Of a DNA stretch of 64,000 nucleotides, positions 20,151 to 64,000 are shown one piece after another; position 1 is the first letter of the stretch; each line of letters begins with the position of its first letter. This DNA is from Escherichia coli. Lineage in GTDB: Bacteria > Pseudomonadota > Gammaproteobacteria > Enterobacterales > Enterobacteriaceae. The position numbers were made by a program, and so were the translations under genes. The stretch lies in assembly GCF_030013205.1 (NCBI RefSeq), contig NZ_CP122648.1. The stretch is one strand, 5' to 3'. The notes under the pieces are model-generated. The model made no database searches. It was not told where the DNA came from and was given only the letters and a program-made list of their open reading frames with translations.

Positions 20151-20427
20151 CGCTAAATAATACAGCAACCTTTAATAATCTTCTGATGAATAAAGATTAT
20201 CTCATATATTAATTTTATGAGATTTTTTTAGGATTATATCAAGGAGAAGAAACGAACTTATTAAGCTAGAATAGCCACGGGTGCTTGAGACTGTTTGTCT
20301 CAGGTATTCACCGAAAGGCAGACAGAGAAAAGCCCCACCTAACTATAAATCAAAGTGAGGCTACCCTATGCCTGAACACCATAAGGTTAGCCTCTTACTC
20401 GTTGGAAATCAACACAGGAGGCTGGGA

Positions 20428-20580
20428 ATGCCGCAGAAATATAGATTACTTTCTTTAATAGTGATTTGTTGCACGCTTTTATTTTTCACCTGGATGATAA
20501 GAGATTCACTGTGTGAATTGCATATTAAACAGGGGAGTTATGAGCTGGCGGCATTTTTAGCCTGCAATTTGAAAGAGTAA
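20428..20580 (+). CDS. hokA: Hok-family type I toxin
   Basis: 50-aa ORF MPQKYRLLSLIVICCTLLFFTWMIRDSLCELHIKQGSYELAAFLACNLKE with an in-frame upstream extension in the ORF-track entry 20368..20580. Confidence 0.8.
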   Translation: MPQKYRLLSLIVICCTLLFFTWMIRDSLCELHIKQGSYELAAFLACNLKE

Positions 20581-20712
20581 GAGTCTTCGGCGGGAAGTTA
20601 TTCCCGCCTTTCTTACGGCGTTGCGCATTCTCATTGCACCCAAATTTATTTTTCACAAAAATAATAATAGATTTTATTACGCGATCGATTATTTATTTCC
20701 TGAAAAACAAAT

Positions 20713-20740
20713 AAAAAAATCCCCGCCAAATGGCAGGGAT
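20713..20740 (-). terminator. Intrinsic terminator of cspA
   Basis: On minus strand: stem ccctgcca/ggcgggg followed by TTTTTTT. Confidence 0.55.
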
Positions 20741-20767
20741 CTTAGATTCTGTGCTTTTAAGCAGAGA

Positions 20768-20980
20768 TTACAGGCTGGTTACGTTACCAGCTGCCGGGCC
20801 TTTAGCGCCGCTTTCGATGGTGAAGGACACTTTCTGACCTTCGTCCAGAGATTTGTAACCATCGTTCTGGATAGCAGAGAAGTGTACGAACACGTCTTTA
20901 GAGCCATCGTCAGGAGTGATGAAGCCGAAGCCTTTGTCAGCGTTGAACCATTTTACGATACCAGTCATTTTACCGGACAT
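20768..20980 (-). CDS. cspA: Major cold shock protein CspA
   Basis: 70 aa, [21 protein letters not shown]... exact recognised sequence. Confidence 0.97.
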
Positions 20981-21200
20981 AGTGTATTACCTTTAATAAT
21001 TAAGTGTGCCTTTCGGCGATATGGCGTGCTTTACAGATTTTGAAGCGTTAAAGGAATGTGCACTACGAGGGGTATCAACGATAACTCTTGAAGGGACTTG
21101 CCTTACTACACTGCTTTAATGGTCTGTACGTCAAACCGTTGACGTGCATTAAGCCACGCATTGGCGGGTGATGCAACAATTATTTTTCATATTTATGATT
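20981..21200 (-). promoter_or_regulatory. cspA long 5' UTR (about 160 nt, cold-box) and promoter with AT-rich UP element
   Basis: Minus-strand sequence ACGGTTTGACGTACAGACCATTAAAGCAGTGTAGTAAGGCAAGTCC matches the known cspA leader start; upstream AT-rich tract. Confidence 0.7.
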
Positions 21201-24634: not shown

Positions 24635-26968
24635 TTGGCCAACTCATCCTCACGATATTCCGTTCTGACTGCCGCCCACTGGGGGCCCATGCTGGTTGAA
24701 ACTGACGGCGAAACCGTGCTTAGCTCGCGTGGCGCGTTAACCACAGGAATGGAAAACTCCTTGCAGAGCGCGGTTCGCGACCAGGTTCACAGCAATACGC
24801 GGGTACGATTTCCAATGGTGCGCAAAGGCTTTCTTGCGTCACCGGAAAAACCGCAAGGCATTCGCGGGCAGGATGAATTTGTTCGTGTGAGTTGGGATGA
24901 GGCGCTGGAGCTTATTCACCAACAACATAAACGCATTCGTGAGGCTTATGGTCCGGCATCGATTTTTGCTGGTTCCTACGGCTGGCGTTCAAACGGCGTG
25001 CTGCATAAGGCCTCGACATTATTACAACGCTATATGGCGCTGGCAGGCGGTTATACCGGGCATCTGGGGGATTATTCGACCGGTGCAGCACAGGCGATCA
25101 TGCCGTATGTCGTGGGGGGCAGCGAAGTTTATCAACAGCAAACCAGTTGGCCCCTGGTGCTGGAACATAGCGATGTCGTGGTGCTGTGGAGTGCTAATCC
25201 TCTCAATACGCTGAAAATTGCGTGGAATGCATCCGATGAGCAGGGGCTTTCTTACTTTTCCGCACTGCGTGACAGCGGGAAAAAGCTGATCTGCATTGAT
25301 CCAATGCGATCGGAAACCGTCGATTTCTTTGGCGATAAAATGGAGTGGGTGGCACCGCACATGGGCACCGATGTTGCGCTGATGCTGGGGATCGCCCATA
25401 CGCTGGTGGAAAATGGTTGGCACGACGAAGCGTTTCTGGCGCGTTGCACCACCGGTTATGCCGTCTTCGCCTCTTATTTGCTGGGCGAGAGTGACGGAAT
25501 AGCCAAAACCGCCGAATGGGCGGCAGGGATTTGTGGAGTTAACGCAGAGAAAATCCGCGAGCTGGCGGCTCTTTTCCACCAAAACACGACCATGCTGATG
25601 GCTGGCTGGGGAATGCAGCGTCAACAGTTTGGTGAGCAAAAACACTGGATGATCGTCACGCTGGCGGCAATGTTGGGGCAAATCGGCACACCCGGCGGCG
25701 GTTTTGGTCTTTCTTATCATTTTGCCAATGGTGGTAACCCCACGCGGCGTTCTGCGGTGCTCTCTTCCATGCAGGGCAGCTTGCCTGGCGGCACCGATGC
25801 GGTAGATAAAATCCCTGTTGCCCGCATTGTTGAAGCACTGGAAAACCCTGGTGGCGCATATCAACACAACGGTATGAACCGACATTTCCCGGATATTCGT
25901 TTTATCTGGTGGGCGGGCGGTGCCAACTTTACTCATCATCAGGATACCAATCGCCTGATCCGTGCCTGGCAAAAACCGGAGCTGGTGGTGATCTCTGAAT
26001 GCTTCTGGACGGCTGCGGCGAAACACGCGGATATCGTTCTGCCTGCGACTACCTCTTTTGAGCGTAATGATCTCACCATGACCGGTGATTACAGTAATCA
26101 GCATCTGGTGCCGATGAAACAAGTGGTGCCGCCACGTTATGAAGCGCGTAATGATTTTGATGTCTTTGCCGAGTTGAGTGAACGTTGGGAGAAGGGCGGC
26201 TATGCGCGGTTTACGGAAGGAAAAAGTGAGCTGCAATGGCTGGAAACGTTTTATAACGTTGCCCGGCAGCGCGGGGCAAGCCAGCAGGTTGAATTGTCGC
26301 CATTTGCTGAGTTCTGGGAAGCCAACCAGTTAATTGAGATGCCGGAAAACCCGGACAGTGAGCGGTTTATTCGCTTCGCCGATTTTCGCCGCGATCCGCA
26401 GGCGCATCCATTAAAAACCGCCAGCGGTAAGATTGAAATATTCTCGCAGCGTATTGCCGATTATGGTTACCAGGATTGCCCTGGGCATCCGATGTGGCTG
26501 GAGCCGGATGAGTGGCAGGGCAATGCCGAACCAGAACAGTTGCAGGTACTTTCTGCTCATCCGGCACATCGTCTGCACAGCCAGCTGAATTACAGTTCTC
26601 TGCGCGAATTGTACGCGGTGGCAAATCGTGAGCCTGTCACCATTCATCCTGACGATGCCCAGGCGCGCGGCATACAAGATGGCGATATTGTTCGGTTGTG
26701 GAACGCACGCGGGCAAATTCTTGCCGGAGCGGTCATTAGCGAGGGAATTAAACCTGGCGTGATTTGTATTCATGAAGGGGCATGGCCGGATCTGGATTTA
26801 ACCGCTGACGGTATTTGTAAAAACGGCGCGGTGAACGTTCTGACCAAAGATCTCCCCAGCTCGCGGCTGGGGAATGGCTGTGCGGGTAATACGGCACTGG
26901 CATGGCTGGAAAAATACAACGGTCCGGAACTGACACTTACAGCGTTTGAACCACCGGCCAGCTCATAA
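24635..26968 (+). CDS. bisC: Biotin sulfoxide reductase (molybdopterin oxidoreductase)
   Basis: 777 aa; molybdopterin family; recognised BisC; start codon choice uncertain. Confidence 0.92.
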
Positions 26969-32336: not shown

Positions 32337-32756
<420 letters not shown>

Positions 32757-36164: not shown

Positions 36165-37067
36165 ATGTCACAGGTTACTGAAAATAAAGTGATTAGCGCA
36201 CCGGTGCCGATGACCCCGTTACAGGAGTTCTGGCACTATTTTAAACGCAACAAAGGCGCGGTCGTCGGGCTGGTTTACGTCGTCATCGTGCTGTTTATCG
36301 CGATCTTTGCCAACTGGATTGCACCCTATAACCCGGCGGAACAGTTCCGCGATGCACTGCTCGCCCCGCCAGCCTGGCAGGAAGGCGGCAGCATGGCGCA
36401 CTTGCTGGGCACCGATGACGTAGGCCGTGATGTGCTGTCGCGTCTGATGTACGGTGCGCGATTGTCACTGCTGGTTGGCTGTCTGGTAGTTGTGTTATCG
36501 CTGATTATGGGCGTTATTCTCGGCCTGATCGCCGGTTACTTCGGCGGCCTGGTCGATAACATCATCATGCGCGTGGTCGATATCATGCTGGCGCTACCAA
36601 GTCTGCTGTTGGCACTGGTGCTGGTGGCGATTTTCGGCCCGTCGATTGGTAACGCCGCGCTGGCGCTGACCTTCGTTGCCTTGCCGCACTATGTGCGCTT
36701 AACACGCGCCGCCGTGCTGGTGGAGGTGAATCGCGATTACGTTACCGCGTCTCGCGTGGCAGGTGCCGGGGCGATGCGTCAGATGTTTATTAACATCTTC
36801 CCGAACTGCCTTGCGCCTCTGATTGTTCAGGCGTCGCTCGGTTTCTCTAACGCCATTCTCGATATGGCTGCTCTTGGTTTCCTCGGCATGGGGGCGCAGC
36901 CGCCAACGCCGGAGTGGGGCACCATGCTCTCCGACGTGTTGCAGTTCGCGCAAAGCGCCTGGTGGGTCGTGACCTTCCCGGGTCTGGCGATCCTGCTGAC
37001 GGTGCTGGCATTTAACCTGATGGGTGACGGTCTGCGTGACGCGCTCGATCCCAAACTGAAGCAGTAA
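36165..37067 (+). CDS. dppC: Dipeptide ABC transporter permease
   Basis: 300 aa. Confidence 0.95.
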
Positions 37068-37077
37068 GAGGTTCGAG

Positions 37078-51232: not shown

Positions 51233-52162
51233 TTACGCCGGCATCGCCTCACGCGGGATAATCGCGCCGCGATACTGAATAACGGTACTTGCGGTCAGGT
51301 GCCCGCGTTTCGCCGCGTTTTCCGCACTGCCGCCCGTCAAACGTACCGCCAGATAACCGGCACTGAAAGAGTCGCCAGCTGCGGTGGTATCGATCACTTT
51401 TTCTTTCGGCAGTTTCACCGCCGGAACATCCACTAACCCTTCGCCAGCAATGGACACCAGGCAAGAATCCGCCCCGCGTTTCACCACCACTTCTTTCACG
51501 CCCGCGTTATGGGTGCGCGCAATGACGTCTTCCACCGGCTGTTGACCCCACAGCGCGTCTTCGTCGTCCAGCGTCAGGAAGGCGATATCCGTGCATTCCA
51601 GCATTTGCTGGTACACCTGCTGTGTCTCTTCTTTGCTGGCCCACAGGCGCGGACGATAGTTATTGTCGAAAATCACTTTTCCGCCGTTGGCGCGGCATTC
51701 GCGCAGCAGAGAAAGCAGCTTTTCGCGGCTGGTCGGGCTTAAGATCGCCAGGCTAATCCCGCTCAGGTAGAGATAATCGAAATTCGCCAGCTCTTCGCAA
51801 ATCGCCGCAGACTGCTCGCTCTCCAGCCAGAATTTGGCGGCGGCTTCGTTACGCCAGTAGTAGAACGTACGTTCGCCGGTGCTGTCGGTTTCAATGTAGT
51901 AAAGGCCCGGCAGACGGTTTTCCATCCGTTGGGTCAGGGAAGTATCAACGTTCTCGCCGTGCCAGGCGTCCAGCATTTGCTGGCTAAAACTGTCCGTTCC
52001 CAGCGCCGTTACGTAATGAACGGTTAATGCCGCAGGATCGACCTGACGGGCGATATAGACGGAAGTGTTCAGGGTATCGCCGCCGAAACCGCGCTTAACG
52101 TCCGCGCCTTTCTCGGAAAGCTCAATCATGCATTCGCCAATCACGGCAATCTTTTTGGACAT
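51233..52162 (-). CDS. kdgK: 2-dehydro-3-deoxygluconokinase
   Basis: ORF-track 51233..52510 trimmed to MSKKIAVIGECMIEL (309 aa); PfkB-family sugar kinase. Confidence 0.93.
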   Translation of the reverse strand: MSKKIAVIGECMIELSEKGADVKRGFGGDTLNTSVYIARQVDPAALTVHYVTALGTDSFSQQMLDAWHGENVDTSLTQRMENRLPGLYYIETDSTGERTFYYWRNEAAAKFWLESEQSAAICEELANFDYLYLSGISLAILSPTSREKLLSLLRECRANGGKVIFDNNYRPRLWASKEETQQVYQQMLECTDIAFLTLDDEDALWGQQPVEDVIARTHNAGVKEVVVKRGADSCLVSIAGEGLVDVPAVKLPKEKVIDTTAAGDSFSAGYLAVRLTGGSAENAAKRGHLTASTVIQYRGAIIPREAMPA

Positions 52163-62366: not shown

Positions 62367-63764
62367 ATGAAAATGGTCTCACGTATTACCGCGATCGGCC
62401 TGGCTGGCGTCGCGATTTGCTATTTAGGGTTATCTGGTTATGTGTGGTACCACGATAATAAACGCAGTAAACAGGCTGATGTTCAGGCATCTGCTGTCAG
62501 TGAAAATAATAAGGTTTTAGGCTTTCTCCGCGAAAAAGGATGCGACTATTGCCACACGCCTTCGGCAGAATTACCCGCCTATTATTATATTCCTGGCGCG
62601 AAACAGTTGATGGATTACGACATTAAGCTTGGATATAAATCTTTTAACCTCGAGGCCGTGCGTGCGGCTCTGCTGGCTGATAAACCCGTTTCGCAAAGCG
62701 ATCTGAATAAGATTGAATGGGTGATGCAGTATGAAACCATGCCACCAACGCGTTATACCGCGCTACACTGGGCGGGTAAGGTGAGTGATGAAGAGCGGGC
62801 GGAAATACTCGCCTGGATTGCAAAACAGCGCGCGGAATATTACGCCAGCAATGACACTGCACCGGATCATCGTAATGAACCGGTGCAGCCCATCCCGCAA
62901 AAACTGCCTACCGATGCGCAAAAAGTGGCGTTGGGCTTTGCGCTGTATCACGATCCCCGTTTATCGGCGGATAGCACCATTTCATGCGCTCATTGCCATG
63001 CGTTGAATGCGGGGGGCGTCGATGGCAGAAAAACATCGATTGGTGTTGGTGGCGCAGTGGGGCCGATTAACGCGCCGACGGTATTTAACTCAGTATTTAA
63101 CGTTGAGCAGTTCTGGGATGGTCGTGCGGCAACATTGCAGGATCAGGCTGGTGGACCGCCGTTGAATCCGATTGAAATGGCGTCGAAATCCTGGGACGAA
63201 ATTATTTCTAAGCTGGAAAAAGATCCGCAGCTTAAAGCGCAGTTCCTCGAAGTCTATCCGCAAGGTTTCAGTGGCGAAAATATTACTGATGCCATTGCTG
63301 AATTTGAGAAAACATTAATTACGCCGGATTCCCCATTTGATAAATGGTTGCGTGGAGATGAGAATGCGCTGACGGCACAACAGAAAAAAGGCTATCAATT
63401 ATTTAAAGATAATAAATGTGCAACTTGTCATGGTGGTATTATTCTCGGCGGACGTTCCTTCGAACCGTTGGGGCTGAAAAAAGACTTTAACTTTGGTGAA
63501 ATTACGGCGGCGGATATTGGTCGTATGAATGTTACTAAAGAAGAGCGCGATAAATTGCGTCAGAAAGTACCCGGTTTACGTAACGTTGCACTAACGGCAC
63601 CGTACTTCCATCGCGGTGATGTGCCGACGCTGGACGGGGCGGTGAAACTGATGTTGCGCTATCAGGTAGGCAAAGAGCTGCCGCAGGAGGATGTGGATGA
63701 TATCGTAGCTTTCCTGCACAGTCTGAACGGGGTTTACACGCCGTATATGCAGGATAAACAATAA
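62367..63764 (+). CDS. yhjA: Di-/tri-heme cytochrome c peroxidase YhjA
   Basis: 465 aa; heme-binding CxxCH motifs (CDYCH, CAHCH, CATCH). Confidence 0.93.
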   Translation: MKMVSRITAIGLAGVAICYLGLSGYVWYHDNKRSKQADVQASAVSENNKVLGFLREKGCDYCHTPSAELPAYYYIPGAKQLMDYDIKLGYKSFNLEAVRAALLADKPVSQSDLNKIEWVMQYETMPPTRYTALHWAGKVSDEERAEILAWIAKQRAEYYASNDTAPDHRNEPVQPIPQKLPTDAQKVALGFALYHDPRLSADSTISCAHCHALNAGGVDGRKTSIGVGGAVGPINAPTVFNSVFNVEQFWDGRAATLQDQAGGPPLNPIEMASKSWDEIISKLEKDPQLKAQFLEVYPQGFSGENITDAIAEFEKTLITPDSPFDKWLRGDENALTAQQKKGYQLFKDNKCATCHGGIILGGRSFEPLGLKKDFNFGEITAADIGRMNVTKEERDKLRQKVPGLRNVALTAPYFHRGDVPTLDGAVKLMLRYQVGKELPQEDVDDIVAFLHSLNGVYTPYMQDKQ

Positions 63765-63875
63765 TTAATTTAATCGCCCGAACAGGAATGTTTGGGCGAT
63801 TTTCATTACGATAATAAAGTCTGTTTTTAATATTATCATGTTAAATGTTTATATTATAAAAAGTCGTTTTTCTGC

Positions 63876-63895
63876 TTAGGATTTTGTTATTTAAA
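63876..63895 (+). promoter_or_regulatory. GAD box (GadE binding site) of the gadA promoter
   Basis: Exact 20-mer TTAGGATTTTGTTATTTAAA about 80 bp upstream of the gadA start. Confidence 0.7.
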
Positions 63896-63974
63896 TTAAG
63901 CCTGTAATGCCTTGCTTCCATTGCGGATAAATCCTACTTTTTTATTGCCTTCAAATAAATTTAAGGAGTTCGAA

Positions 63975-64000
63975 ATGGACCAGAAGCTGTTAACGGATTT
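63975..64000 (+). CDS. gadA: Glutamate decarboxylase alpha, 5' end only (runs off the window)
   Basis: ATG at 63975 followed by MDQKLLTDF; position downstream of yhjA and a GAD box. Confidence 0.75.

Follow-up and report, generated by a model that had tools for sequence, protein, structure and literature searches.

The GAD box of the gadA promoter at the ccp/gadA boundary of the acid fitness island in a porcine lineage of Escherichia coli

Introduction

The GAD box of gadA in Escherichia coli K-12 reportedly goes back to work by Castanie-Cornet and Foster in 2001 and by Ma and co-workers in 2003. It is an element of 20 bp centred 63 bp upstream of the transcription starts of both gadA and gadBC, and at K-12 gadA 16 bp separate it from the -35 element downstream (PMC2887963). 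Seo et al. (2015, PMC4918353) give the 20-mer TTAGGATTTTGTTATTTAAA as the GadE-binding site characterised in earlier work. RcsB and GadE together give a DNase I footprint from -50 to -76 (Castanie-Cornet et al. 2010, PMC2887963), and GadE purified free of RcsB neither binds nor protects the box (PMC2887963). Electrophoretic mobility shift assays (EMSAs) with mixed tags indicate that RcsB and GadE bind as a heterodimer, for which the apparent Kd is ~10 nM, and a G-to-C change within the box (M1) abolishes both RcsB/GadE binding and GadE-dependent activation (PMC2887963). Binding and activation by the heterodimer were shown both in vitro and in vivo on a K-12 fragment extending from -101 to +24 (PMC2887963).

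The promoter contains a second RcsB site, an RcsB box that sits directly upstream of the -10 element, which is of low affinity and represses when RcsB is abundant; it is kept in gadB as well, where only its left end differs, having C instead of G (PMC2887963). The regulatory model drawn from these data has separate GadXW, GAD, and RcsB boxes (PMC2887963).

Here we describe the GAD box found close to the right edge of a 64-kb stretch of E. coli DNA, referred to throughout as the window, and compare it with the corresponding elements of K-12 and of other Escherichia genomes. The sequence of the box, its position, its conservation, and the identity of its neighbouring genes are observed directly in these genomes, and its function is taken from the literature.

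Results

The GAD box and the gadA promoter

The right edge of the window includes the end of one transcription unit and the start of another, with the following features.

62367 to 63764, + strand: ccp (yhjA), cytochrome c peroxidase, a 465-aa open reading frame, named ccp in genomes that are 100% identical here
63772 to 63801, + strand: likely intrinsic ccp terminator, with a 13-bp stem and a GGAA loop followed by a T-rich tail
63817 to 63836, + strand: candidate GadX/GadW (AraC-type) site AAGTCTGTTTTTAATATTAT, a consensus match
63876 to 63895, + strand: GAD box, activator site of the RcsB/GadE heterodimer; exact match, with function from the literature
63912 to 63917, + strand: -35 element TTGCTT, placed from its spacing, 16 bp after the box
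63925 to 63936, + strand: RcsB box, a site for repression by RcsB homodimers, adjoining the -10 element; right limit approximate
63935 to 63940, + strand: -10 element TACTTT, separated by 17 nt from the -35 element and preceded by a C at 63934
63963 to 63968, + strand: gadA Shine-Dalgarno sequence AAGGAG, 6 nt ahead of the ATG
63975 to 64000, + strand: the first 26 nt of gadA, translated as MDQKLLTD, the GadA N-terminus, and cut by the end of the window

The 20-mer TTAGGATTTTGTTATTTAAA at 63876–63895 on the + strand is an exact match to the published GAD box, as the preliminary description of this DNA had proposed, and it is present as one copy: a search of both strands of the 64-kb window with up to 3 mismatches revealed no other. 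None of 100 dinucleotide-preserving shuffles contained a match at the same threshold, and the chance expectation is 0. The gap between the box and the -35 element is exactly 16 nt (63896–63911), and 79 nt separate the end of the box from the gadA ATG at 63975, in agreement with the earlier estimate of about 80 bp. The element has the 20-bp identity, the geometry relative to the -35 element and the start codon, the location in a glutamate decarboxylase promoter, and the conservation between paralogues that characterise GAD boxes, and we consider it almost certain that it is the GAD box of the gadA(-gadX) promoter and an upstream activator site bound by RcsB/GadE. Its description as 'GadE-binding' is accurate in that this is the published GadE site but is incomplete, as the binder is the RcsB/GadE heterodimer and GadE alone fails to bind (PMC2887963); the label is an older and simplified description of the GAD box. 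The identification is correct, already known, and ordinary.

A generic scan of the window for promoters and terminators (sigma-70) did not pick up the gadA promoter or the ccp terminator, and the promoter elements were assigned from the published spacing and the terminator from RNA folding. With the published box centre at -63 and the footprint at -50 to -76, gadA transcription would begin at approximately 63948, 7 nt past the -10 element and 27 nt before the ATG, and the RcsB/GadE footprint corresponds to 63872–63898 of the window. The G/C difference that distinguishes the RcsB boxes of gadA and gadB aligns at 63925, the left end of the box.

Upstream of the GAD box, ccp is the last gene outside the acid fitness island; the matches of its product to the di-haem MauG/MbnH-type families are below the cut-offs of those families. 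The hairpin at 63772–63801 is most likely the ccp terminator, folding with -20.3 kcal/mol (z = -5.66), a value that none of 200 shuffles attained. Its stem is kept upstream of gadA in other E. coli genomes and in E. albertii, with some stem positions changed. The ccp–gadA intergenic region has a GC content of 28–30%. This AT-rich region is a reported H-NS target.

The candidate GadX/GadW site lies ~40 bp upstream of the GAD box. Its sequence AAGTCTGTTTTTAATATTAT agrees with the GadX/GadW consensus AtGtcTGATtTttatattat, as quoted in PMC4918353, at 17 of 20 positions, and 63817–63836 is the sole match to this consensus in the window at up to 3 mismatches, where 0 are expected. This position fits the separate GadXW box of the published model.

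Comparison with the K-12 gadA and gadBC promoters

Only three positions in the ccp–gadA intergenic region (63772, 63786, and 63804) differ between the window and K-12, and all are upstream of approximately -140. From 63805 to its end the window is identical to K-12, and this segment takes in the -101 to +24 fragment of the published lacZ fusions. Because the gadA control region is identical to the K-12 promoter that has been dissected, what is known for K-12 (activation by RcsB/GadE, repression by RcsB, and the input of GadX/GadW and H-NS) should transfer to the porcine lineage.

Alignment of the gadA and gadB promoters, which had been suggested as a check on the identification, bears it out in that the 20-mer is common to both and the flanking sequences are divergent. 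When the gadA and gadBC promoters of K-12 are aligned the box is identical and both flanks diverge at once, with sequence shared again at the -35 core, at the RcsB box together with the -10 element, and at the ribosome-binding site.

Conservation of the box

Of 5426 complete E. coli genomes searched by blastn using a 40-nt query centred on the box, 5425 have matches, at a median of two places in each. Over the aligned stretch, identity at the best place is at least 99% in 5133 records, and in 5396 records at least 80% of the query is covered at one place. Six places are on plasmids, and some genomes have three places instead of two; a gad promoter may thus occasionally be present in additional or mobilised copies. 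Of the 5426 genomes, 5414 have a match to the last 601 nt of the window, always on the chromosome and with ccp and gadA annotated there.

The exact 20-mer occurs 11 times when one genome is scanned for each of 100,044 species (298 Gb). Escherichia accounts for eight of these occurrences (E. coli-type representatives, E. albertii, E. whittamii, and Escherichia sp. E1V33), and in all eight a gadA- or gadB-type start follows after 79–80 nt; association of the 20-mer with a gad gene is restricted to Escherichia among the 100,044 species genomes. The other three matches, in metagenome-assembled genomes (MAGs) of one Lentisphaeria and two Bacteroidales, were set aside as chance occurrences, being in coding-like sequence that is not followed by a gad gene at 79 nt. 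Their number fits chance, since the expectation for a 20-mer in 298 Gb is estimated at ~0.5 or more.

Eleven Escherichia gadA and gadB promoters were aligned, and they are invariant at the box, at CTTGC (63911–63915) in the -35 region, at the block 63930–63944 that includes the RcsB box and the -10 element, at the Shine-Dalgarno block TTAAGGAGTT, and at the start codon. The region of the RcsB box keeps GAT(A/T)AATCCTAC throughout Escherichia. The GAD box itself is invariant in this alignment by construction, as the loci were chosen by exact match to it, and the blastn search of E. coli genomes provides the unbiased check. In Escherichia sp. E1V33 and E. whittamii (loci L010 and L013) the region upstream of the gadA box is unrelated to the terminator and GadX/GadW-like region of E. 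coli, and the box and all of the sequence downstream are conserved. This suggests that gadA in these two genomes may have a different upstream neighbour or island boundary.

The two halves of the box

A GadE motif derived from ChIP-exo data, TTARGAWWWWAAATA (Seo et al. 2015, PMC4918353), has no match in the window at up to 1 mismatch, and it agrees with the canonical GAD box in the left half, TTAGGATTTT, only. As a scanning pattern TTARGAWWWWAAATA does not recover the canonical box and was dropped. Mutagenesis gave no assignment of the right half, GTTATTTAAA, to either protein (PMC2887963), and this half does not vary in the Escherichia gad promoters examined, which were chosen by exact match to the box. 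The disagreement with the ChIP-exo motif and the lack of a published protein assignment, set against this lack of variation, raise the idea that GTTATTTAAA is read otherwise than by simple GadE half-site contact, for example through DNA shape or by a further factor, although we regard this as highly unlikely.

The acid fitness island beyond the edge

The porcine E. coli isolate K_EC180 (NZ_CP062203.1) is identical to the window at 24,643 of the 24,644 bases that overlap. A sequence past the edge that encodes no glutamate decarboxylase had been named as refuting the identification, but in K_EC180 the gene at the edge is full-length (466 aa) and scores 692 bits on TIGR01788, the glutamate decarboxylase equivalog, for which the cut-off is 380 bits. 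RefSeq annotates this gene as gadA in genomes that are 100% identical there.

The gene order past the edge in K_EC180 is gadA, gadX, gadW, mdtF, mdtE, gadE, hdeD, hdeA, hdeB, yhiD, a chu/shu haem-uptake cluster, dctR, and slp, and the acid fitness island block is directly after the window edge in the annotations of both K_EC180 and E. coli 042. The gadE gene is annotated as intact 8.7 kb past gadA in K_EC180, and gadE, gadX, gadW, hdeAB, and hdeD have no pseudogene flags; the rcsB gene maps to another part of the chromosome. The preliminary description had placed the start of the island just beyond the window; island genes do follow the edge, but the boundary itself is inside the window, which contains the gadA promoter and the first 26 nt of the gene. 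The finding serves only as an annotation anchor, with the right edge of the window being the ccp/gadA boundary of the acid fitness island.

The chu/shu haem-uptake insert is located between yhiD and dctR (36995–45948 of the K_EC180 segment L016); it is also present in 042 and is absent from K-12. In the part of the K_EC180 island past the edge there are no near-copies of the GAD box with up to 3 substitutions. A match with 4 substitutions is present at 28502 of L016, and there are matches with 5, one of which is at 35280 of L016 in the gap between hdeD and hdeA.

Other features of the window

The bcs cellulose locus contains a deletion of ~10.3 kb that joins remnants of bcsG and bcsC, with the junction at 42826–42841 and a microhomology of CGCCGCCGG. 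Part of bcsG, all of bcsF, bcsE, bcsR, bcsQ, bcsA, bcsB, and bcsZ, and the 5′ part of bcsC have been removed, leaving two remnants.

~41999 to 42841, - strand: bcsG′ pseudogene remnant
42826 to 45882, + strand: ′bcsC pseudogene remnant

The junction is rare, occurring in 17 of 5426 complete E. coli genomes, and the 12 junction genomes listed of these 17 are all pig isolates, including the O139:H1 edema-disease type and porcine enterotoxigenic E. coli (ETEC). No published description of the bcs deletion surfaced in a literature search.

Three tandem copies of an ldr/rdl type I toxin-antitoxin system are present at ~40600–42000, with rdlD matches at 40725–40790, 41208–41273, and 41691–41756. The copy number varies, there being five copies at the same place in 042, and the sole mismatch to K_EC180 (window position 40925) falls within this repeat. 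The last 601 nt of the window are 100% identical to 042, yet the window is not collinear with that genome. The yhjJ–kdgK gap (51138–51238) is ~100 nt in the window and in K_EC180 and contains five hypothetical genes (~2.3 kb) in 042. The segments 20279–21140 and 32337–32749 contain ordinary RNA features. A sok antitoxin RNA of the hokA locus adjoins a full-length cspA thermoregulator 5′UTR; this leader was recognised by an Rfam match, and the gene adjoining it is named cspE in 042. A tRNA-Pro(CGG) is followed by two RtT repeats.

Discussion

By analogy with the published K-12 experiments on an identical sequence, a heterodimer of RcsB and GadE, two helix-turn-helix proteins of the LuxR/FixJ type, would bind the GAD box at 63876–63895, and once bound it would activate gadA, which encodes glutamate decarboxylase A, in stationary phase and under acid stress. 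Activation would occur from a class-I-like position at -63, presumably through contact with the C-terminal domain of the RNA polymerase alpha subunit. Control is probably composite, with a GadX/GadW-like site ~40 bp upstream, an RcsB box at the -10 element that would repress at high levels of RcsB, and H-NS acting on the region as a target. The acid fitness island, whose first gene is gadA, extends past the window edge.

The 20-mer could in principle be a chance AT-rich match without specific function, as it is in an intergenic region of 28–30% GC and the same sequence has arisen by chance in coding-like sequence of three MAGs. This reading has a negligible probability, and chance is excluded by the statistics together with the pattern of conservation: shuffled sequences yield no match in 100 trials even with 3 mismatches allowed, the box holds a fixed position relative to the -35 element and the ATG in both paralogues and across Escherichia while its flanks diverge, and nearly every E. 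coli genome has it, usually at two places. Published mutagenesis and footprinting on the identical sequence (PMC2887963) also contradict a lack of function. We regard it as very improbable that the box is intact but idle in a strain in which the system has decayed, whether through a gadA pseudogene or through loss of gadE or rcsB. Such decay has a precedent in the deletion by which this same lineage lost its bcs cellulose genes in this window, but gadA is full-length at 466 aa and gadE, gadX, gadW, hdeAB, and hdeD are intact in the near-identical K_EC180, and the promoter from 63805 onward does not differ from that of K-12.

It is unlikely, if somewhat less so than decay of the system, that the box serves chiefly GadX and GadW, two AraC-type regulators that would compete or repress at it as their operator, and not RcsB/GadE as an activator site. 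Both proteins can repress by competing for the gad box under some conditions (discussed in PMC6128205). However, their consensus falls at 63817–63836, ~40 bp upstream of the box and not on it, the published model keeps the GadXW and GAD boxes apart (PMC2887963), and the M1 mutation of the box abolishes RcsB/GadE binding as well as GadE-dependent activation (PMC2887963). Action of GadX/GadW at the box is best seen as an additional layer on activation by RcsB/GadE and not as an alternative to it.

The closest relative of the element is the K-12 gadA GAD box, which has the same 20-mer at the same distances, 16 bp from the -35 element and 79 nt from the ATG, and is likewise flanked by ccp and gadA. 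The functional region of the promoter has no differences from K-12, and the lineages are distinguished by the three SNPs in and around the ccp terminator and by the porcine background of the present one. The gadBC promoter shares with gadA the 20-mer, the distance to the ATG, the RcsB box, the -10 element, and the Shine-Dalgarno blocks, but differs in having an unrelated upstream region, no ccp terminator, and another sequence at the GadX/GadW-like position, and its coding region starts with MDKKQVTD (gadB) rather than MDQKLLTD (gadA). Among sites used by RcsB with a partner, such as the RcsAB box and those of other LuxR/FixJ partners, RcsB likewise pairs with an auxiliary LuxR-type protein (PMC2887963), and the left half of the GAD box, TTAGGA, resembles an RcsB half-site (PMC2887963). 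The GAD box differs from the RcsAB box in that the partner is GadE and not RcsA, and in being asymmetric. At the scale of the acid fitness island, the gene content and order from gadA to slp are those described in E. coli and Shigella, with the interval expanded by the chu/shu insert to ~22.6 kb in this lineage from ~13.6 kb in K-12.
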